Part shown: in pieces, positions 32,714 through 63,712 of the stretch | How positions within the stretch are numbered: the stretch's first letter is position 1 | How the letters are laid out: every line of letters starts with the position of its first letter | Virus record (IMG/VR): IMGVR_UViG_3300037141_000236 | Location: 24,948-88,947 of that record | Reading direction: 5' to 3' (one strand) | Length of the DNA: 64,000 nt | Source of the DNA: a virus | Notes under the pieces: generated by a model | Databases searched by the model: none | What the model saw: the letters and a program-made list of their open reading frames with translations, nothing else | Told to the model about the DNA's origin: nothing | Translations under genes and position numbers: made by a program

Positions 32714-32968
32714 ATGATCATTTCATTTCTCTTTGGTTTGTTTGTTTCTCTTGCTGGGGTTATTGTTTATGCAGTGACCACAAGCGATAGTGAATCACAA
32801 TCCATAAAAGCATTGGAAGGTGAAAGAGATCGTTTAAAAGGTTCGCAGCAACATATGTTTGAAATGTGCGAAGACTTCAAAGAGTGTAATCAGGAATTGA
32901 AAGTCGAAAACGAAAAATTAAAAGTTAACGACCCGTATGAGAAAATGCGGAAAGAATGTGGGCTATGA
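32714..32968 (+). CDS. TM-anchored coiled-coil protein with tag
   Basis: N-terminal TM; ends DPYEKMRKECGL*. Confidence 0.6.
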   Translation: MIISFLFGLFVSLAGVIVYAVTTSDSESQSIKALEGERDRLKGSQQHMFEMCEDFKECNQELKVENEKLKVNDPYEKMRKECGL

Positions 32969-36076: not shown

Positions 36077-37210
36077 ATGTCAAATAAGTCAAATTTAAAA
36101 GGAGCTAAGAGCATTGCGCAAAAACTTGCAGTTCTTAAAACAAACGAAGAAAAAGCTGAAGCTGCAGGACAAAAACTTGCTGACAAACCAGATGTAGAAC
36201 AAATCTGGGTTGAAACAGGCAGCCAATACTTCCGCAGAGAAATCGGCCGTCACTTCAAACAACTTGATAACGCTGTATATACAGTGGAAATCACACAGAT
36301 GGGCGAATTCTATTTAGAACGTCAAGAAGAACGTTTTGATTTTCCTTACAAAGTTTACGGCCTGGAAAGCAAATTGATCCAACGTACTTTAAAGACTTAT
36401 AAAGCTACAACCGGCAATATGGGTCTTCTATTGAACGGTATCAAAGGAACAGGTAAAACTGTCACTTCAAAGATCCTGGCCAACGAATTGAATATGCCTG
36501 TCATTCTTATTTCCAAATACATTCCTGGTGCCCACTTCTTCCTGAATACCATTGAGCAGGATGTTACCATCTTCATCGATGAATACGAAAAGGTTTACGA
36601 AGAAGATTCTGAAATGCTTGCAATCATGGATGGAGCATTAAACTCCGAGCATAGACGCGTATTCTTATTGACCACAAATAAACTATATGTCAATGAGAAT
36701 CTGTTGCAACGCCCAAGTCGTATTCGTTACTTAAAGACCTTCCAGGACTTGACTCCCGAAATCACCGAAGAGATTGTTGATGATTGTTTGATTCACAAAC
36801 AATTCAAAACAGAGGTTTTAAAGTTCATCGCGAATTTAGAGATCATTACTGTTGACATTGTGAAAGCAGTTGTGAGTGAAGTAAACATTCACGAAGAGCC
36901 GCCATTGAATTTCAAGGATGTATTCAATGTGAAGAAGATCACTGGCAAGTATGATGTATCCATTGTGGACCTTACCGGTGTGTCCATTCCATTTAAAAAG
37001 AATGTAACCATCAATCCAAGAAACTTTGACGATGCCGAACAATATATCGGTTATAACTTCATGGTTGGTAACGAACACTTGGGAAGAATTACAGAAGTGT
37101 TGGATACTCATACGATCAAGATCCAACCTGCCAAAAAGAAATCGAAAGAGATTACTGTTAAATTTGAAAGTGCAGATTCCATTCACAAAAATTACGCATT
37201 TGCGTTTTAA
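36077..37210 (+). CDS. AAA+ ATPase
   Basis: Walker A GIKGTGKT, Walker B IFIDEYEK, LLTTN sensor, RPSRIRY Arg finger. Confidence 0.9.
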   Translation: MSNKSNLKGAKSIAQKLAVLKTNEEKAEAAGQKLADKPDVEQIWVETGSQYFRREIGRHFKQLDNAVYTVEITQMGEFYLERQEERFDFPYKVYGLESKLIQRTLKTYKATTGNMGLLLNGIKGTGKTVTSKILANELNMPVILISKYIPGAHFFLNTIEQDVTIFIDEYEKVYEEDSEMLAIMDGALNSEHRRVFLLTTNKLYVNENLLQRPSRIRYLKTFQDLTPEITEEIVDDCLIHKQFKTEVLKFIANLEIITVDIVKAVVSEVNIHEEPPLNFKDVFNVKKITGKYDVSIVDLTGVSIPFKKNVTINPRNFDDAEQYIGYNFMVGNEHLGRITEVLDTHTIKIQPAKKKSKEITVKFESADSIHKNYAFAF

Positions 37211-42718: not shown

Positions 42719-43619
42719 GGTAATGCTCCATGATGGAATGCACGGAATTGTATTTGGCGAAGTTGTTGGCATGAGTAATCCGAAAGATGAAAATGAACAA
42801 ATTAGATATCTTCTTAAGTTGTTTAATTGTACTGGTGGTTTTAGTTTCCATAGTGTTAAAGAGATATCCAAATTGATTAAAGAATGGATAAAAGAAGAAA
42901 CAGTTGAGGACTTTAAAACTTATTTTGCTAAAGAAAGCATGGTGGTCACAAAAGCTCCTGATTTTGTAACCTACAGCTGGATTGATGAAGACTGTTTGTA
43001 TACCGACGAGCAAATATTAGAATACGAAGCAGATAAGATACGAGTCGAAGTGTGGAAAAAGAAACGTCCACTGCGTCCTACACCAAAACAAGCATAAGAT
43101 TATGGAATTACATAAATTTGATTATGTAAGGATTAAGACTGCTAAAGAGTTTAATCTTTGGCCTGAGCAACACCCTGACGGTTGGAATTCTAAAGGCCAA
43201 ATGGATTGTTATTTGGGCCAATGGGTTGTTATTTTAGATTGTGATAACAATAGGAAAACTTTCAGAGTCGAGAAAATCGTAAAAGATAAGCAGTCGAGAA
43301 ATTGGATATTCAATTATTTTGATATCGCGTCACATTCTGGAACCGTTGAAGCCGCAGAACTTAAAATCAAAATGGAAATTGGATTATGAATGAAGATTGG
43401 ACAAACAGATGGGTTAAATGTCTTGATACTCAAAACATAATAGAGTTACATTTAACCAGTGGTAAATATTATCAAGTACTCCATGAGTTTGATACCACAG
43501 GTATTTGTGTGGTAAATGATCTTGGCGAATACAGTGGCGCATTATATAAAGGAAGGTTTGAGGTCGATGATATAGTTTTCGCAGAACAACTAATTAAACA
43601 AGAAATAGGACTAACATGA
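42681..43619 (+). other. Three tagged ORFs (42681-43097, 43102-43389, 43386-43619)
   Basis: IRVEVW..., IKMEIGL*, IKQEIGLT*. Confidence 0.7.
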
Positions 43620-45588: not shown

Positions 45589-45876
45589 AAGACTATAAAG
45601 ATTTAGACGAAGCCATTGAAAGTGTAAGAGATGAAATTCCATTACACATTCCTGAAGGTACGCAAGTCATTGGAATAGGATCAGGTCACAATGAATCTAC
45701 TCATGAAGATTATAAACGTGTTTGGAATTGGACGAAAGACGATATTGGAGTGATTATTTCATATATGGGTAAAAGCAGATACAAACAACACGTTTATAAA
45801 ATACAAAAAGATACTGGTGCTATCTGTTTAGTCCGCGCCGAAGGCTTTAAACCTATCGTTTCTTAATATAAAAAGA

Positions 45877-45972
45877 AACTCATTGATTATCAAGCAGTTA
45901 CAGATTTCCTGAAATTATTGTTGTTTAAGGGGTGGTTGGTCACGTGATTACCTGTATCTTTATGGTATAGAA
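45877..45972 (+). promoter_or_regulatory. Repeated promoter module, copy 1 (palindrome + GGTT-N17-TATCTTTA)
   Basis: Shares TCATTGATTATCAA..AGTTACA.ATTTC and GTATCTTTATGGTATAGAAA with 51424-51522. Confidence 0.7.
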
Positions 45973-46000
45973 ATTAAAACAAACAAAAAAACCACATACC

Positions 46001-48638: not shown

Positions 48639-49292
48639 AATGGACTATGCACCGTATATAGGTTCTGATGGTAAACTATGTTTGCAAGGAACCGAAATAA
48701 AAGGTATTGTCGGATCAAATGAAACAAAGGATACAATCCTTCGGATCGCCAACAAGTTCCCTCACCTTTATATTGTCATTCTTCCGAATCCTCTTAAAAG
48801 GGATAACTTTTTCTTATTCAGTTATTGCTTATGAGAACGCTCATCAAACAATTCCTCTGCCGCCATGTGTGGGACTACTGGAGTAATCAATACAAAAGAT
48901 GTTACAAGTGCGACAAGGTACACTTTCATAAAGTTAAGAAATGATTGACATCGATAAGGAATTCGCATTACTTAAAGCATACATGAAGTTGTATATTGAA
49001 CTTCTTATGCAAAATGAGAAGCATCCTCCCTCCTTTGAACATTATAAAGAAAACCTTTCATTCTTCGCTGCTTCTCCGTATGTGGAATTGTATTGCGTGC
49101 ATGGCAAACAACATGCCGTTGGTTCCGGAACATTTGACTGGGCAATGAAACAAGATGATTGGATTGCTTACCGACATTACCAAAGTTATAAGTGTAAAGA
49201 GGTTAATGTAACTGATTGGACCTGGAATAAGAACCTTCATAAGACGGCTTGTAACAAGTAAATTCTTATCTTTAGGTCTAAATCCATTAACG

Positions 49293-49757
49293 ATGAGCAG
49301 AAATAAAATCGATATACGCACGTTGGCAGACATGGCAACAGCTATAAGCCATTACGAAGCTTTGGCAGGCTACTTCTCTCAATTGGATCCCGCACAGAAA
49401 GCAACACTTGATCCCGCTTGGGACAGAGCTTGTGCAAGTGCCAAACATATGGATCACAATTCATTTGAAATCTGGCAAGACATCAACTTTCACATTATAA
49501 GCCAAATGTGGGGTAGTACTGCTTGCGGTTGGGGAGGCATGGGTGGTGCCATGATGACAAAAGCTTACACAATGATAATCGAGAACCATCAAAACAAGTT
49601 GGCTTTCGTTTATTGGCACGGAAAGCTTGCATACATTGTCGATACCGATGAGAAATGGGAAACATATGTAAAGAGAGGCTATCAAGGTTTACCCAGCCTT
49701 CATTCGCTCCCAACACAATTAACCGTTGTATACATTGGAAATAACAGAAGAATATGA
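49293..49757 (+). CDS. Hypothetical protein (Q.WGST..G.GG.GG.MMT motif)
   Basis: Gly-rich motif; TATCTTTA box at 49267. Confidence 0.6.
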   Translation: MSRNKIDIRTLADMATAISHYEALAGYFSQLDPAQKATLDPAWDRACASAKHMDHNSFEIWQDINFHIISQMWGSTACGWGGMGGAMMTKAYTMIIENHQNKLAFVYWHGKLAYIVDTDEKWETYVKRGYQGLPSLHSLPTQLTVVYIGNNRRI

Positions 49758-50611
49758 AAAGCGAAACAATAAAATCATTTACTTATAGTGAATTGCTAAC
49801 CAAGTGGGAAGCATCCTACAAGAAGCAACGTGAACTGTTTGCTGAAGCAGATAAGTTCGGAACTGATCCAAAAGTGTGGCCGGTATTGACATTGAAAGCC
49901 TGTGAACAAAGGGATATCACAGATTCATACGCAATGGAAATCTTCGAACGTAAAGGATTCAAATCATGAAAACAGACGTTCTCATAGCAACAGTACTTCT
50001 TGGTTGGAAAGAAGATAGAAGTTTCCCTGACAAAGGAAGAGTGTTTCGTTCTCCCGGCGGAGCTCTTGAAATGGATACCACTTTCAAATTCAAAACAGAT
50101 TATAATGAATTGATGAAGGCATTCAGCGCCATTGAACAAATGGGCTACACCATCGAATTAATATCTTTTAGAGTTGGCAATAAAGGTCCCACTAAGTATG
50201 TAGCTTTTATTCACGAAGACCAAAAAACCCTTATTTGCAGATTTACTTCTTTTGACAGGCTTGAGGCAATGTATTTGGTAGTATGCCATTTTGCTTTATG
50301 GATTTCAAAAGGCAAACCAAAAATAGAAATATGAAATATCATTGGGTAATACTTAAACACGTTCCCACAGGTAAATGGCTATCAACCAACGCTCAAGGAG
50401 AAACAGAACTCGTTGATGCACCTGAAGATGCTTTGCCTTGTGATCTGAACGCCTGGGAAGGTAACATCATCAACATGGAAGATGCAACGGCAACGGATGG
50501 TACAATCATTACCGGTGATGATATCATGGTGTACAATTATACTGTGAAGGTTACAAAACCAATTCCAGGTGCATGCACAACATTCAAAGAAAATAACACA
50601 ACTGATTCAAT

Positions 50612-50737
50612 ATGGATCCAGTAGAATTTATCCAAGGGGAACTACAAACATTGCAATGCACATTAGGCGTTGTATTATTCATCATACTCGGTTGCCTGAC
50701 TACAATGGCAATTTGGGTTTATCGCAAAAAGAAATAA
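50612..50737 (+). CDS. Small TM protein (41 aa) followed in frame by an orphan tag
   Basis: MDPVEFIQGELQTLQCTLGVVLFIILGCLTTMAIWVYRKKK* then IRKEIGL*. Confidence 0.6.
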   Translation: MDPVEFIQGELQTLQCTLGVVLFIILGCLTTMAIWVYRKKK

Positions 50738-50757
50738 ATCAGAAAGGAAATTGGATT

Positions 50758-51383
50758 ATGAATTTCAAGGTAAGAGATTGGGTTATATATGAAGGTCAGC
50801 CTTATCAAATTGCTTTAATACTGGGCAATGTAAAAAGCAATGATTGTTTACTCATTGTACCAAAAGGTTTTAAAACTGCTTTCCAATTAAATGCAGGAAG
50901 TATCCCTGCCTGGAAAACCTTAATAAAAGGTTTTCCAGGCAAAAAGTTCGAAGTAATACAGGCAGAAGAGTTAGTTCATGTGGGATCTGTTTATTACTTC
51001 TGGTGCACGACAGATGAACTTTCCGGTACGGTTGGAATAACTGTTGAGGAAATAAAGATTAAAAAAGAAATAGGTCTATGAGCAAATTCAAAATAGGAGA
51101 TCGTGTTGAATGTCTCACCATCAAAGAACTTATTGTAAAGAACCCTACTTTTGGTAAAGCTAAGATTACTGAAGTTGGGTCATGGGCAGGTGCAGGCTAC
51201 AAAGAAGGCAAAAGGTTTACAATTCGAACAGAGAATAATGGAAAGGATGAAACTGCATACTTTCCTCTTGAAATAGATGCTGATCCACATAGAGGCGTTT
51301 ATGGTTGGGCTTTGAAACTATCTCTTGCCACCATTGAGGAAGTAGAACAAGATATCTTAAAAGAGATTTATTCTAAGGAATAA
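50758..51383 (+). other. Two SH3/KOW-like tagged ORFs (50758-51081, 51078-51383)
   Basis: MNFKVRDWV...IKKEIGL*; MSKFKIGDRV...ILKEIYSKE*. Confidence 0.72.
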
Positions 51384-51423
51384 ACCCTCAATACATAATC
51401 CTATCATTTATTGGTATAGAAAC

Positions 51424-51522
51424 GTAAGTCATTGATTATCAATGAGTTACATATTTCTTGCTTTTATTTTGTGTTTTAGTAGGTTGGTAACCTAATCTCC
51501 CGTATCTTTATGGTATAGAAAA
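51424..51522 (+). promoter_or_regulatory. Repeated promoter module, copy 2
   Basis: GTAAGTCATTGAT-T-ATCAATGAGTTAC palindrome (1 mismatch); GGTT-N17-TATCTTTATGGTATAGAAA. Confidence 0.7.
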
Positions 51523-51547
51523 AGAAACAAAATCTAAAAACAACCAC

Positions 51548-51988
51548 ATGGCCATCACAAAATTAACCTGCATCCAAGTTCGCACACAGTTAGAACTCGC
51601 TTTGAAAACAATTGGTGAGCAACACGGAATTCGGTTTGATATCGGCAAAATTCGTTTCAATGATGTTTCTTTTCGCTGTACTCTGAATGCGGAAGCGAAA
51701 AATCAAACCATTGCGCTTGCAACGAATGCTATCTATGCGACAACCGTTCCAAGCACTGGCACAAAGGATTTGAATTTCTATATGAATCGTTCTTATCGCA
51801 AAAATGCAAACTGCATTACTTATACTGTCATTGAATTTCATCCGAGCCGTCCAAAATACAAGTTTGTCGTTTCAACACCGTATGGAACCAGATATCGCGC
51901 GGCTGCAAAATGGTTGGATAGCATGAAGGATGTTACACCAAGCAAACTTGACGACGAAATTTTGGGCGGGGAACTAAGTTCACTCTAA
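51548..51988 (+). CDS. Hypothetical early protein
   Basis: First ORF after promoter module 2. Confidence 0.6.
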   Translation: MAITKLTCIQVRTQLELALKTIGEQHGIRFDIGKIRFNDVSFRCTLNAEAKNQTIALATNAIYATTVPSTGTKDLNFYMNRSYRKNANCITYTVIEFHPSRPKYKFVVSTPYGTRYRAAAKWLDSMKDVTPSKLDDEILGGELSSL

Positions 51989-53157
51989 ATCAAAATTCAC
52001 TCTAACACCAAACAAATAAATTCACTTAAATCAAAACATATGTCACTCGAAATCGGAAACCACAAAAGCTCTACTTCTTACTACGAATTTCACTCGTATA
52101 AAAAGGCAGCGATCATCAAAGCGAAAAACATCTTGACTGGCCGAATCAAAGGCAACGAAGAACAAGCCCAAGAATTGATGTATCCCAATCACGTTGTTGT
52201 GTATGCCAACACCAAAGAACAGGCAATGCAAATATTGTGTAAGCGTTATGCCAAAGTGCGTTACAACCACATATTCAAGTGCGTATCCAAATTGCGTAGT
52301 TTTAAATAACTTCATCTCAAAATCAAACATCATGCGTTGCATCGGAAAAAAGAAAATCGGAGATTTAAAAGGCGGACAAATGTTCTCAATTGATCTCGTA
52401 AGTGAGAAACTTCCAAACCCAGGCCTGTGCATAAGACTTGCAGCAGTTGCAGTCATCGTAAATGGTTGTGCAATGCCAAGGGCATCGAATTATACCAAAG
52501 GAGATTCCTTCATTGCCATCCGCGTTAGTAATGGGAAGCCAGCAATGTATCACACTGATCAAGAAGTATACGTTTACGAATAAAACCCAAAACCATGAAA
52601 AAGAAATCAGATACTTATTTTGCAGTTGCAGTAACCTGGAATAAAAAATATGATTATTTCAGTGGTCGCGATAAACTCGAAAAAATCCTTAGCCGCGAAT
52701 GTTCAGGCTCAGGTTGTGGAATGGGAACTGCTGACGCAGATTGGTGTTACAAGCAGAAAGCCACAGCGATCAAGATTGCCAAGCGCCTCAAAAGACTGAA
52801 GTGGTTGTCCAGTGTTGACATCACAAAGTATTCAGATACTGAAGATGTAAACATTGAATTCTAACTATGAAAGCATCAATTCACAAAGCTCCGAAGTTCA
52901 GTGTTGTTCCAAAAATGTTTAAACAATGGAAGCAACCAAATCATATTCATAGACTCTACTTGTCCATCGTGTGGTTTGGTTATGTTCTCTTTATAAAATA
53001 CAAATGAGGCACCTGAAATATTTAATCCCTCTGTGGATCATGTTAGGAATTATCATTGGCATTCTGCTTTACACAACTCCTGAAAAACCTCACAAACAAT
53101 TCGTTATCGACAGTAAGTCACATTACGTGTAACCTCTTCTTATAAGAATTATACATT

Positions 53158-55101: not shown

Positions 55102-55350
55102 ATGGCGAAGGTAGAAATTTCAAGAGTAGACTTTCTTGTTGCATTGGCAAAAGCAAGCGCAGCTACTCCAGAAGAACAAGAATTGGTTAAAGACAGTCTT
55201 GCACTGATTTTGAATGCACATTTGTTTTTAGAAGAAGCAACACCCAAACAACTTGAAATATTGGATGCAAAGAAAGAAGCTTGGTTGAAATGGAAGAACA
55301 GTGGCGAGTCAGCTGAAGACACAATCAAAAGAGAAATCGGACTAATATGA
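55102..55350 (+). CDS. Helical protein with EIGL tag
   Basis: Ends SAEDTIKREIGLI*. Confidence 0.65.
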   Translation: MAKVEISRVDFLVALAKASAATPEEQELVKDSLALILNAHLFLEEATPKQLEILDAKKEAWLKWKNSGESAEDTIKREIGLI

Positions 55351-56363: not shown

Positions 56364-58143
56364 ATGCAAAAGTTTGACCTTCTGGATAAGATAACATTAA
56401 AACATCACCCAGGAGCTTTTACAATCGTGGGTGTGATCACGCCTAATCCTGATTTGGAAGAAAGAACATATCTCATTTCTATTCCGTTAAAATTCAGTGA
56501 TGGTTTTCTATATACTCTTGAAATGCGAGACGGTTGGCAAGCAGGCCAATGGTTTGATTATACCACGTTTATAGAACCAATGATGATTGAAGGCAAATAC
56601 TATATGTGGGTTAGCGAATGGAAAGTAAAAGATAGCGTACTCACACCGGAACAACTAATCGTTAAACAAATAAGACAAGAGATCGGATTATGAGCTTCAA
56701 AGCAGGTGATATCATTGAGACAACGTTTATGCCTGGAAGGTTTCTGGTGATGATGTATCGTCCGAAAGAAGACCCGAAGAGCAGCATGATTGAATATATG
56801 ATTGCGTTGCCAGACGATTTCAAAATACCCACCGCAGAACATAAAATTTGTGATGTCAAAGAAGATTTCTTTCAAGAGTATAAAAAAGCTGGATACAAGA
56901 GTGATTGGCCTAAATGGATTGCAGAGTCTCCTGGCTCAGAAAAATATGTTTTGGTTGGGCAAAGATATATGTGGGTTCATCCAGAAGAAATAAAAGATCC
57001 TTTTGAAACAACCGAAGAGCAAATAATAAAAGAAATTGGCCTATGAGCAAGTACAAGCCCGGTGAATGGGTTAAGGTTAAGGGACTTGAAGGTGAGTTCC
57101 AAATCTATCTCTATCGTAAGTATGAAAATACCAGGATTTCTTCCGGATATATTATTGGTGTTACCAAGAATGTTGATCAACATTCTATATTTGATGGCCA
57201 TGATGAAGAATGGGCTAGGTGGATCCATAATTCACCCGGCTCAGAAAAATTTATGCTCCGTGGAGTAACCTATGCTTGGATTGAGGAAGAAGATATTGCT
57301 GGTGAAGATCCTTTACAATCAACTGAACGTATAATCAAACGAGAAATTGGGCTGCCATGAAGAACATACTATTATTCCTTTCGGGTAAATACAAGCGGTC
57401 TTTGCTTTTAAAAGCGGAGAAGGTTGTTTGGGACATCTATAAGAATCAAGGACTAACATCAACAGGATGGGCCGCAAGAGAAGCAATAAGAAAACTTAAA
57501 TAGCCATGTTTAAAGAAGGAGACCAATTCGTTGTCAAGACAAAAGAACAGTTTGCTGCTGAATTTGGAACAAAGGAAAACTCTAATAACTTTCTTTTGGA
57601 ATCTGATGGCCACATAATTTATTTTAATGATGCCAACATGGGTAAATTTTATGGTAAAGTTGTAACAATATGTCAGATAATGGGAAGAGGTCGGTATACA
57701 ATAAAGGAAGAACAAATTTATAAATGGACAGCTGAAATGTTTCAACTAAATATTACAGCAACCTTGGCTTCCGCCGAACACATAATAAGAGAAGAAATTG
57801 GGTTATGATACTATATGCAATAAAATATAAGCCCGGAGATAAAGTTCGTGTAAGATTCTTTGAAGACCTTCAAACGAAATATTCTTCTGACCCAAGAACC
57901 AGCTGTTTACTTATTCCTGCTGAGACAGATAGGAATTCGATTCAATTTTTAGGGTCTATGACACTCTTGTGTGGTAAAATAGTTACCATTTCAAATGTTA
58001 TCCCGCAAGACTCTCATAAAAAGAAATATGATCGTTATTATGTTGTAGAAGACGACAATGACAGTTATTGGTCAGATGCAATGTTTATTTCTCCAGAAGA
58101 AAAAGCTACATTACAAATTAAACAAGAGATAGGTTTAGTATGA
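56364..58143 (+). other. Five SH3/KOW-like tagged ORFs (56364-56693, 56690-57046, 57043-57360, 57506-57808, 57805-58143)
   Basis: Ends IRQEIGL, IIKEIGL, IKREIGLP, IREEIGL, IKQEIGLV. Confidence 0.78.
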
Positions 58144-58962
58144 TCCACACTTGTTAACAATCTTATAACCTTTGCTGGTGATTTTATGATAAGCTTTACG
58201 GATCCCTTTAAGAAGTCTCTTAACCATTGATTCTTTCATTTCAGGGCCAAAGCTCTTTGATTTTCTACCTCCCCAATTCTGGCCCATGAATGGTTCTTCC
58301 GACGCCAAATGAATACAAACAATCTCTGGAATGAACTTCCTTTTACCTGCAGGAAATTGTTTAAGATGTAATACATCAGTACGATCGTATGCTGCATGTT
58401 CTCTTGGATAAGTTATGACTCCAGATCCAATTGGATTCCACATTTGAAAGAAACCTATTGGCCAATAACCATCTCCTTTGTATTGAACTACTCGTTGTCC
58501 AATTGGAAAATGATGCATATGCATATAAACCCAGCCATCATAGATTGGTTTATGAATACTTTGATGGATAAACTCTTGCCAAGCTTTATATGAATTGCAC
58601 ATTAAGCGATCTATGCCATAGATACAGTCTTTATCTAGCGATAAACGATCTAATAACTCTTTTGTAAGAGGGGGAAGCCAGATATCAGCATCTAGTTGCA
58701 CTACCCAACCATCCTTATCTAATTTCTTGAGGCCTTCGTTGATTCCCAAAGCTTTGTTTGCCACAGGGCCATCAGTATAGAACGCATCAGTTTGAATGCA
58801 AGGAACATTATAAAATTGACATACTTGGAAAGTAGCCAAGTCTTTAGTGTCGGTCACAACAACCATACGATTAAAGAGAGATTTATTATTTGGAAGGGTG
58901 ACTTTTAGAAAATCACTGTAGCCAATACAAACTACAACTGCTTCGATCTTGATTTGGGACAT
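58135..58962 (-). CDS. GT-A (GT2-like) glycosyltransferase
   Basis: VVVTD, NKALGINEGL, LDADI (DxD), IGFFQ, D..H; TATTTA at 58982 (-). Confidence 0.8.
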   Translation of the reverse strand: MSQIKIEAVVVCIGYSDFLKVTLPNNKSLFNRMVVVTDTKDLATFQVCQFYNVPCIQTDAFYTDGPVANKALGINEGLKKLDKDGWVVQLDADIWLPPLTKELLDRLSLDKDCIYGIDRLMCNSYKAWQEFIHQSIHKPIYDGWVYMHMHHFPIGQRVVQYKGDGYWPIGFFQMWNPIGSGVITYPREHAAYDRTDVLHLKQFPAGKRKFIPEIVCIHLASEEPFMGQNWGGRKSKSFGPEMKESMVKRLLKGIRKAYHKITSKGYKIVNKCGSY

Positions 58963-59162
58963 TTAGAGCCTATTTTTATTATAAATAGACTAATGATTAT
59001 GTAAACTTTGAGAAGTAGATTACTTTTTCCTGAGTTTATAAGTATGTTCGTAGCATATTCGAATCATCACCCAACGTTTATTCCTCCATACAAACACTAC
59101 AAATTGCGTAGCTTTACCACAATGATGACAATGCGGTCTATCTTTTCGCATTATTGTTTTCA

Positions 59163-59807
59163 CTATTCAGAAGCCTCACAACACATTTCTTCACCAGCTT
59201 CTCTGCCTTCCATTTCTTCTCCGAAGGCCACATCAAGTTTATAAGACTTGTCTCCAGCACCTGAGGTTTTTGTGTTAAACTCTTTCTTCTTGCCATTTAC
59301 GACAATTGAAAGGATCTTATAGTTTGTGAAACCCGAGAGGTCCCACATTTTAAGAGCTCCAAATAATTCTGCTTCAGAATCGAACTTAAGAAGGATATAA
59401 TCTTCAGGTTTACTGCTGTAAGCCCTTTGTAGTTTGCGTTCTTTAGGTTTGGATTCTTCATCTCCTTCTAATATTCCAAGCATTTTATGCGCAGGTTTAT
59501 GCGCAGGTTTACCAGAAGAATGCCTTGCTTTTATTTTACGATCCTCATGACCATATTTTGACTTAACGGCTTCATCACCCAGTGAATCCATTTCATCCCC
59601 CAAGTCACCATTATCATACTTCGCGACAATTACTTCCTTACCAAAGAAATCATCAATGATATGACTATAAATCAACGCTGCTGCATCTTCACGAGAGACA
59701 TGAAGCTTGGTAACAGCTTCATCGATCTTACTTTGGATCACAGACTTTTGTTCACTTGTTAAAAGGTATTGCGGGACGAGTACGGTACTTACTTCTTTCG
59801 GATTCAT
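59163..59807 (-). CDS. Hypothetical protein
   Basis: 214 aa ORF on the - strand. Confidence 0.6.
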   Translation of the reverse strand: MNPKEVSTVLVPQYLLTSEQKSVIQSKIDEAVTKLHVSREDAAALIYSHIIDDFFGKEVIVAKYDNGDLGDEMDSLGDEAVKSKYGHEDRKIKARHSSGKPAHKPAHKMLGILEGDEESKPKERKLQRAYSSKPEDYILLKFDSEAELFGALKMWDLSGFTNYKILSIVVNGKKKEFNTKTSGAGDKSYKLDVAFGEEMEGREAGEEMCCEASE

Positions 59808-61414: not shown

Positions 61415-63712
61415 ATGAAAACAAAGAAGTTTAACTTGGGAGATATTGTTAGGGATGATAATTCATCAACAACCGGTAAGATAATCATCATTGCGCAAAA
61501 CAGAGAGTCGAAGACCTATCATTATGGAATTGGAGATCCTAATAATGGGTACACAATTAAACATTTCTTCAAAAAATACGAATCACATTATTTTTTCACA
61601 TTTGATGGTGAAATGGAAGCCTCAGAAGAGGAAGTCACCTTTCACGATGAAAGTGTGTTGACTTTATTGACACCCGTGAATCCTTTAATTTCTGTCGAAC
61701 AACAAATAAGAAAAGAGATATGGCACCATTAAAACCAGGGGATTGTATTGTAAGAACATTACTAGGTGGTAACAGCAGAACCGCCTATAAATGCAACCAC
61801 ATTTATAAAGTACTACGTCATGAAGAGGATACTGTTTTCACTGAAATGGATTCGGTGGGAAGTAATCATAATGGTTGGGGAGTAGGACACTTTAGGAAAG
61901 CAACTCTCGAAGAAGCAGAGTTGTATGATCTGTTTGGCATCTGCGATTGCAACATCATTGATACAATGGAAAAAATGTTATTGGTTAGATACGAAAGAAT
62001 TATTAAAAGAGAAATTTATGGCAACAAAAAAGATCAAGCTTGTTAAGCCGAAATTCAAATACAAATATCACGTGGGCGATATTATTTGGGCCAATTGGGC
62101 ACCTGATGATGGATATGATCTTGAATTAGGAAGAGAAATTGTTGCTGTCATTTATAGAACTGACCTTAACGATCTCTTTTATGCAACAAAACCCATTGTA
62201 GGAGAAGAGCCCACCGGTTGTTTAATTGAACCGAATGATGATTATAAATTCATTGAGCTTTTACCTGGACAACCAACAAATGTTGAATTGGGTTTATATA
62301 TAAGTGAAGAAGAAGTTGATCATTGCGAGCCCATGACACCATTAAAGAAAGCCGAAGCAAAAATAAAACTTGAAATAGGATTAGTATGAAATTTCAGAAA
62401 GGAGATAAGGTAAGAATGCGACATGAAAGTGAATGGGCACACATACCTGGCTATGAACGTCATGAATTCTTACCTAAACAGCTTGCGCCTGTGGGCAGAG
62501 GCGCAATTCACAAATATACAAGAGTCACGATTGATTTTACACACGCAGCATTAAGTATGTCTGTAGAATCTTTAAATAAGATTGAAACTGTGACAGGTTG
62601 TTTTGGAAATATTGTTGCAACAGAAGGTTTTAATTTTCCTGAAGACTTATTAGAATTGGTTGAAGAAGCAGATGATAGCATACAAGCACAAGAACAACAA
62701 ATAATAAAAGAAGTTTATGGCAAAGCAAAAGAAATATAAACCAGGAGAACACATTACTCTTATCTCTACACATAACCGATATAAAGTAATGGTTGTTGCA
62801 GTTGAGAAAGAAACTGGAGAGTATTTTTATGCTTTCGAAGATAAAGAAAAAGGAAAGCCCTTAGAAGGATTTTCTGACAATGATCATTATGTATTTTCTT
62901 ATGCGCCGGAATATACAAGCGATACACTTTTAATCTTTGGCGGAGAAGATCGAGTCGCGTTCGAAGAAGATGAATTAGAAACAGTTTGTGAAAATATTAA
63001 AAAAGAAATAGGGCTGTAATATGACAAAGACAATGCAAAAATATAACCTGGGAGATTATATTACCGGGATCTATTCCGAACATCAATCAGATGCTTATTA
63101 TAATAATCTGTCAGCAAAAGATAGAAAAGGAAAGATCGTAGCAATCATAAGGGATTACAATGATATTTGGTATGGTGTAATTTCAGACGAAGTAAAATCA
63201 CCTTATTCAAAAGATCATTGGGAACTGGTTGATTGTGATGAAACTTGTGCCGCAGAGATGACAAATGTTAGTTGGTTGCAACAAGAAGCCATCGAAGTTG
63301 AAAAAGATCCGTTTTTATTAGCACAAATTAAAATAAGAAAGGAAATTGGAATATGATAACAGACTTTAAAACAGGCGACAGAGTTAAATTCAAACCAATT
63401 AAAGAATTGGAGAAGCTTTCTAATTGGATATCAACTGAAACTATTCATAATAGAACGGAAGAAAATTTGATGAGGCTTCTCTTTCAAGATCCGAAGTTAG
63501 AGAACCATAATTACGTCTTAACCAGACCTCATAATGTTTGGGATAAAGAATTTATTGTATCTTTAGTAAGAGAATACGACAATTGTTTAGAAATAGGTGA
63601 ACCACATACCGGGCCATTAGGCTATGCACACCAGTCTGAATGGTTTATGAAAGTTGATGATTTGAGCATCGCAGAACGACAAATTAAAAAAGAAATATAT
63701 GCTAACAGTTAA
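61415..63712 (+). other. Seven consecutive SH3/KOW-like tagged ORFs (61415, 61720, 62018, 62386, 62717, 63021, 63353)
   Basis: Each has a [FYL]xxG[DE] motif near the start; ends IRKEIW, IKREIY, IKLEIGL, IIKEVY, IKKEIGL, IRKEIGI, IKKEIY. Confidence 0.8.

Follow-up and report, generated by a model that had tools for sequence, protein, structure and literature searches.

Tag-coding DNA behind the stop codon of a 41-aa reading frame in a phage small-gene array: most likely a recombination scar

One copy of the DNA for a C-terminal peptide tag, common to many small genes of a virus contig, stands directly behind the stop codon of a 41-aa open reading frame (ORF). This orphan is most likely a recombination scar in an otherwise novel tag array. 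We give about an even chance to a more specific reading, in which the TAA is the native stop of the 41-aa ORF and a lost or displaced tagged gene has left its tail, the orphan, attached to the start of the next gene. Taken alone, the orphan would be a minor relic of evolution, useful mainly for tracing how the array is reshuffled. The features of the locus are given in Table 1.

Table 1. Features at the orphan locus, in window positions
Feature	Position	Strand	Remarks
Untagged 97-aa gene	50331-50624	+	Upstream; shares its last 13 nt with the beginning of the 41-aa ORF
41-aa ORF	50612-50737	+	MDPVEF...AIWVYRKKK; hydrophobic helix, RKKK, stop TAA
TAA stop between 41-aa ORF and tag	50735-50737	+	Directly before the tag core
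Orphan tag DNA, IRKEIGL + TGA	50738-50761	+	In frame with the 41-aa ORF
Tagged 107-aa gene, MNFKVRDW...IKIKKEIGL	50758-51081	+	ATG overlaps the orphan TGA
Functional tag of 107-aa gene	51058-51081	+	Right edge of the block that varies in X10

The window, the whole stretch of DNA analysed here (64,000 nt), is the final 64 kb of an 88.9-kb virus contig, 36.5% G+C. The phage genome is much larger than this contig, since proteins of the locus near 50 kb are found on contigs of up to 168 kb. Twenty sequencing runs from 16 studies contain the locus; all are metagenomes of peat, permafrost or watershed origin, and none is recorded as RNA. From about 22 kb onwards the plus strand carries densely packed small genes, mostly linked through ATGA stop/start overlaps. 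On the minus strand, two genes (275 and 214 aa, 58135-59807) break the plus-strand array of small tagged genes. Among the ten longest ORFs scanned (1989-37210), the sole Pfam match at E 0.001 is an AAA ATPase at 36077-37210; the other nine had no Pfam family at that value.

The canonical tag, [IM][KRI]xE[IV]G[LI] followed by a stop, occurs in 15 plus-strand copies in the window, the orphan included. Further copies are one residue longer ahead of the stop, or have G replaced by Y, W, Q or N. Five tags with an extra residue (family D6) lie at 43589-43619 (T), 55320-55350 (I), 57330-57360 (P), 58113-58143 (V) and 62359-62389 (V); in each the added codon ends in A, so that the ATGA stop/start overlap is retained.

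The orphan is genuine, full-quality tag DNA. With up to one mismatch allowed, the pattern GARATHGGNYTRTGA has 18 matches, all on the plus strand, compared with 0.74 expected and a maximum of 3 in 100 shuffles. The stricter 24-nt pattern ATHARRNNNGARATHGGNYTATGA has 10 matches in the window, one of them the orphan, and 0 in 100 shuffles. Held out and scored on a matrix of the 14 other canonical tags, the orphan reaches 34.0 bits, ninth best of the 15; the 14 training tags, slightly favoured by being scored against themselves, range from 27.6 to 39.6 bits. A chance match, which the original prediction had named as one way in which it could fail, is excluded by these figures. That prediction had read the locus from the letters alone, as RKKK and TAA followed in frame by ATC AGA AAG GAA ATT GGA TTA TGA, with the end of the tag overlapping the ATG at 50758, and every one of these details holds.

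The orphan's closest relatives are the tags at 43366 and 63333, each identical at 22 of 24 bases, with an exact run of 18 nt shared with the former. Exact runs between tag junctions average 7.9 nt and reach at most 17 nt among the 14 other tags and 18 nt for the orphan. In codons 4-7 of those 14 tags, 7, 0 and 18 bases at codon positions one, two and three depart from the majority, and six of the seven first-position departures are synonymous TTA/CTA changes. Judged by this pattern of substitution, the tag is conserved as a peptide and its DNA similarity is a by-product. Because tags appear to be constrained as a peptide, the orphan is best read as a relic and not as a DNA signal. A scan of 49000-52500 found no promoter-like or terminator-like site at 50738-50761.

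Most canonical tags (14 of 15) end in TGA and one ends in TAA. In 13 of the 14 TGA-ended tags the ATG of the next listed gene lies inside the overlap, so tag DNA and the next start form one physical piece. The orphan's junction (..GGATTATGAAT..) has the same overlap, with the ATG at 50758. It is nonetheless the sole copy among the 15 that is separated by a stop; the others are continuous with the body of an ORF. As read, it is untranslated and gives the 41-aa protein no tag, and it forms a 20-nt leader plus start overlap for the 107-aa gene. No other copy preceded by a stop scores above 13.3 bits in the window. One candidate for a second orphan, at 58541-58555, was discarded: it lies within the minus-strand 275-aa gene and scores under 12 bits. 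Tag-like DNA alone is thus not a tagged protein, which is a warning for tag catalogues.

Across IMG/VR the strict tag pattern was found in 15 contigs, with one match each, and 11 of the 15 had an in-frame stop within 8 codons upstream. These matches are at chance level, and the pattern search of IMG/VR found no other tag-bearing phage. As far as the strict pattern and IMG/VR tell, the tag array looks specific to this lineage. Within the window, a 48-aa ORF at 57357-57503, between two tagged genes, ends in AAREAIRKLK; its DNA tracks the first half of the tag (..ATAAGAAAA) and then diverges, and the ORF may carry half a tag, the complement of the orphan.

Several properties bear on whether the 41-aa ORF is a gene. 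Residues 18-36 form its single strongly hydrophobic segment (19 residues, mean Kyte-Doolittle value 2.48), and other small window genes that are hydrophobic or basic-tailed are untagged and have similar basic C-termini, for example FKKKP, IIRKKRK and KFKRK. Codon log-odds are +8.8 bits in frame over 40 codons, compared with -27.9 and -0.6 in the other frames, a score that is joint top of 29 plus-strand ORFs of 35-50 aa. The ORF has been called as a gene on three contigs (P0003). By these properties the ORF is probably a gene for a small membrane protein, and the TAA its native stop.

It is unlikely, in our judgement, that the ORF is no gene and that 50625-50757 is instead a decayed tagged gene of which only the tail is recognisable. 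The coding potential is moderate: the score exceeds that of 88% of 51 minus-strand ORFs, and 12% equal or exceed it. The protein also has no homologues outside this lineage, of similar length or longer, in the protein collection. But the ORF's frame is the best of the three, an alternative frame giving -0.5 bits, and the design of helix plus basic tail is like that of other small genes here. Strains differ at a single site within the ORF, 50638 (G>A in X9 and X10), where the change is synonymous, and the edge of a block exchanged in strain X10 coincides with the ORF's stop. Without the ORF there would be a non-coding gap of 133 nt, which is unusual in this tightly packed array.

Its neighbours are more clearly coding. 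The 97-aa gene has +41.1 bits in frame compared with -42.7 and -106.9, and the protein or near variants of it (P0010-P0012) are present on nine contigs. The 107-aa gene has +39.9 bits; its protein cluster holds seven variants plus a 68%-identical allele (P0002). Some gene callers extended the N-terminus of the 107-aa protein to an ATG at 50656 or a GTG at 50569 (P0007, P0008), an extension that we rejected since it has a coding potential of only -0.5 bits.

Pfam and PHROG contain no fitting family for the 41-, 97- or 107-aa proteins, and a Herpes_LMP1 match to the hydrophobic helix of the 41-aa protein (E 0.041) was set aside. BLASTP against the 70 listed window genes found no paralogue of the three proteins. 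No match was found in viral contigs searched with the 107-aa, 97-aa and P0002 proteins, in viral and metagenome contigs searched with a 29-nt window pattern, or in metagenome contigs searched with the 97-aa protein, all collections from which the closest records may be missing. The phage collection gave no protein match. A weak match in genome contigs to an alphaproteobacterial MAG (L001, 28 residues) was judged irrelevant. At the DNA level, the only match of 49000-53000 in the phage collection was to a 634,780-bp uncultured phage (LR745206.1; 73.8% identity over 107 nt at 49443-49549); it lies inside a 154-aa gene (49293-49757), a gene other than those of the orphan locus.

We compared the locus over 2 kb (49800-51800) with contigs of four runs from four studies (X2, X4, X9 and X10); such contigs hide minor variants within a run. 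The X2 contig has no differences over 50055-50985, and the X4 contig has one over 50544-50770, at 50592. The X9 contig (50438-50800) has 13 differences, none beyond 50638 and every one listed; immediately upstream it diverges by about 6%. All three contigs, which come from three studies, have the TAA and the orphan in unchanged form. The X10 piece aligns across the TAA to 50738, with 3 of its 12 differences, near the end of the piece, having no listed position, so direct verification of the TAA is confined to X2, X4 and X9. Four proteins called in the 107-aa frame and extended upstream (P0001, P0004, P0007 and P0008, on contigs of up to 168 kb) have the same translation across the junction.

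This is the alignment of relatives that had been proposed as a check, and it shows the TAA in X2, X4 and X9 and a different sequence following the 41-aa gene in X10. A sequencing error at the TAA, which would have made the orphan simply another tagged gene, is excluded for three of the four runs by the X2, X4 and X9 contigs. An assembly or sequencing error, or a chance match, is hardly credible as an explanation: the same bases occur in contigs of three studies, and the pattern and matrix statistics given above exclude chance. Tag DNA can thus uncouple from a protein and yet persist unchanged in several strains.

The same contigs bear on the idea that the TAA is a recent nonsense mutation. For a recent mutation, one of the three options first put forward, no sense-codon version was found: the X2, X4 and X9 contigs have TAA at 50735-50737, and the collection has no extended protein. 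An old nonsense mutation is possible, with a chance that we put at somewhat under one in three. Here an ancestral 49-aa tagged membrane protein (...RKKK-K/Q-IRKEIGL) would have had AAA, CAA or TTA changed to TAA, the truncated gene would have stayed functional, and X10 would later have swapped everything past the new stop. The tag is in frame, and the stop takes the place of the codon just before the core, which in the 14 other tags is AAA in 5, CAA in 2 and TTA in 1. Acidic residues are absent from the six positions ahead of the core in 4 of the 14 tags, which means that the basic run RKKK is not disqualifying. The window also contains a tagged membrane protein (32714-32968), but there helix and tag lie apart, with a long coiled coil between them. 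Three of the four runs carry a verified TAA, and no sense-codon form was found. No tagged or longer version was found among 5.8 billion protein clusters, in which the sole candidate is the identical P0003; a relative of at least 49 aa is likewise missing from the protein collection. Two separate events would also be required, and the later one would have to end no more than one base from the new stop codon.

Programmed readthrough or recoding of the TAA, giving tagged and untagged isoforms of the membrane protein, had been the second option. It is very improbable and went unsupported in every line examined. All that speaks for it is the in-frame arrangement together with the intact tag. TAA ends 31 of the 70 listed genes, and the next base is A in 15 of those 31, so that the stop of the 41-aa ORF has the commonest terminator context. 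There are no tRNA genes in the 88.9-kb contig (of a genome of at least 168 kb), no Rfam element, and the RNA fold is not unusual (z -1.54). The extension is not conserved, since the X10 sequence is unrelated from one base past the stop and has no tag there. The locus resembles programmed stop-codon readthrough in having an in-frame extension past a stop; it differs in having no leaky context, stimulatory structure, suppressor tRNA or conserved extension. Two related possibilities were rejected. A frameshift does not account for the arrangement, as the tag is in the zero frame; general recoding of TAA is contradicted by genes that tile the region under table 11, where in-frame extensions past TAA are short.

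The most informative strain is X10, in which the locus is split over two unjoined contigs (records 2 and 3) whose flanks are each visible for 30 letters. Record 2 matches the window over 50247-50738 and continues with 288 letters unlike it. This continuation is led by an ATG that starts one base past the position of the 41-aa stop, and nothing like the opening of the X10-specific sequence occurs in the 88.9-kb contig. In record 3, similarity to the window sets in at 50770. Before this point stand the codons for ...KEIGL and a TGA overlapping an ATG, followed by MSKFK. This tag DNA is a different copy, like the orphan at 15 of 19 bases, and the homologue of the 107-aa gene has an extra codon. 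P0002 is the X10-type allele: it starts MSKFKVRDW, is 68% identical to the window's 107-aa protein and has the same C-terminal tag. Further along record 3, the window's 162 nt between 50895 and 51058 are swapped for 153 unlike letters. The match resumes at 51058 with 2 differences in 253 nt (51193 and 51263), and the tag there is identical at 24 of 24 bases.

The block that ends with the 41-aa gene joins different right-hand neighbours in different strains. X10 records 2 and 3 show that the 41-aa gene can be separated from the unit made up of tag and 107-aa gene. The X10-variable block, 50738/9-51057, opens with the first base of one tag core and closes immediately before the next core. Two X10 edges fall at tag-core starts (50738/9 and 51058) and three do not (50247, 50770 and 50895), as seen in one strain pair over 2 kb. 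Strains of this peat phage thus differ by gene-sized blocks whose edges can lie exactly at tag starts.

A further strain difference lies upstream, away from the tags. In the 122-aa gene at 49966-50334, X4 has 130 unlike letters in place of 142 nt within 50117-50260. X10 loses similarity before 50247, and together with the X4 swap this makes 50117-50260 a second strain-variable segment.

The favoured reading, a leftover tail from a tagged gene since lost or displaced, would work as follows. The 24 bases past the TAA would be the 3' tail of another tagged gene whose body is gone. That body would have been lost by deletion, or displaced when a block ending with the 41-aa gene was joined beside the 107-aa gene; the joint would have fallen precisely behind the TAA, where the tag core begins. 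Survival of the tail would be explained by the last codons of the tag, which hold the next ATG (..TTATGA), and by the preceding 20 nt, which are the leader of the 107-aa gene. Since a tag's last codons contain the next ATG, rearrangements that spare the downstream start would tend to keep tag DNA. We infer the direction of the event, that the lost gene had been tagged, and that the tail was retained for the sake of the downstream start. In other runs of tagged genes the first members have no tag leader, so the leader is not generally required.

Some features of the locus count against such a scar. The remnant is exactly the seven-codon core and is in frame with the 41-aa ORF, an agreement expected by chance in one of three cases. 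So neat a cut would not be expected from random deletion. Where the stop stands, 5 of 14 tags have AAA, which a single base change turns into TAA, and this fits the nonsense mutation equally well.

The third option first proposed was that a new gene had replaced the body of a tagged gene and left its tail. It is the best supported of the three as regards a leftover of rearrangement, but not as regards the 41-aa gene being the replacement: that gene did not simply replace a tagged body, because in X10 it stands before another ATG-led sequence. The accompanying suggestion, that tag DNA serves as a micro-homology joint for shuffling gene cassettes, also fared unevenly. The joint at the orphan lies at the 5' edge of the core and not inside it. 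A crossover inside the tag would yield a tagged gene, so the orphan is not evidence for one. The tag-to-tag block in X10 is suggestive of such a joint.

A broader view, to which we assign only a small probability, makes tag DNA and the stop/start overlap inside it (..GGN YTA TGA) the movable connector of a set of gene cassettes. Strains would trade gene bodies along segments that each stretch from one tag start to the next. The tag would then segregate with the downstream gene and not with the protein that it tags, and the orphan would be the footprint of an exchange beside an untagged gene. If true, the tag would amount to a coding version of PeSL or attC-type shuffling sites, and a single 24-nt sequence would be at once peptide tag, translational coupling site and recombination patch. 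The two tag-start edges in X10 make the crossover-site idea worth testing across the array, and the orphan together with the X10 edges gives a testable handle on how the small tagged-gene array is reshuffled.

The ssrA degradation tag and PDZ-binding tails are C-terminal addressing peptides, and the tag resembles them as a short conserved C-terminal peptide common to unrelated proteins. The orphan is uninformative on the function of the tag because it is attached to no protein. Leftover fragments at joints belong to the general picture of phage mosaicism. For lambdoid mosaics, homeologous recombination by phage recombinases has been proposed (Martinsohn et al. 2008; PMC2327257). The likeness to that account is in gene-sized exchanges, joints close to or at gene boundaries, and possible crossovers at short similar patches. 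The differences from it are that the patch here would be a 24-nt peptide-tag sequence common to unrelated genes of one genome and that no recombinase was identified here. Gene-sized replacement blocks and leftovers at joints are ordinary in phages; what would be unusual here is that the repeat is a peptide-coding tag.

Comeau and colleagues reportedly described PeSLs in 2014 as mobile regulatory cassettes of T4-type phages. As Arbiol et al. (2010; PMC2839356) describe them, PeSLs are a short repeat between small non-essential genes in the hyperplastic region of T4-type phages. The genes that they flank are inserted, deleted and replaced between close phages. The same paper presents the PeSL as a non-coding promoter-plus-terminator unit and recombination between PeSLs as demonstrated (PMC2839356). 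PeSLs are the nearest described system with a repeated element at joints, and the two are alike in having a repeated short sequence among small genes and gene blocks that differ between related strains. The tag repeat differs in being coding, with constraint at the peptide level and variation mostly at third codon positions, and the evidence for exchange here comes from one pair of strains, in which two block edges coincide with tag starts.

The window also contains a non-coding repeat. Two intergenic segments, 45871-45994 and 51420-51542, are about 77-80% identical over pieces of about 50-60 nt (families D10 and D13), and each heads a run of mostly untagged genes. The X2, X4 and X10 contigs join the piece at 51485-51550 to other flanks, with identical loose ends in the three runs, and this element is therefore also present elsewhere. 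The repeat shared by 45871-45994 and 51420-51542 may be a PeSL-like regulatory cassette.
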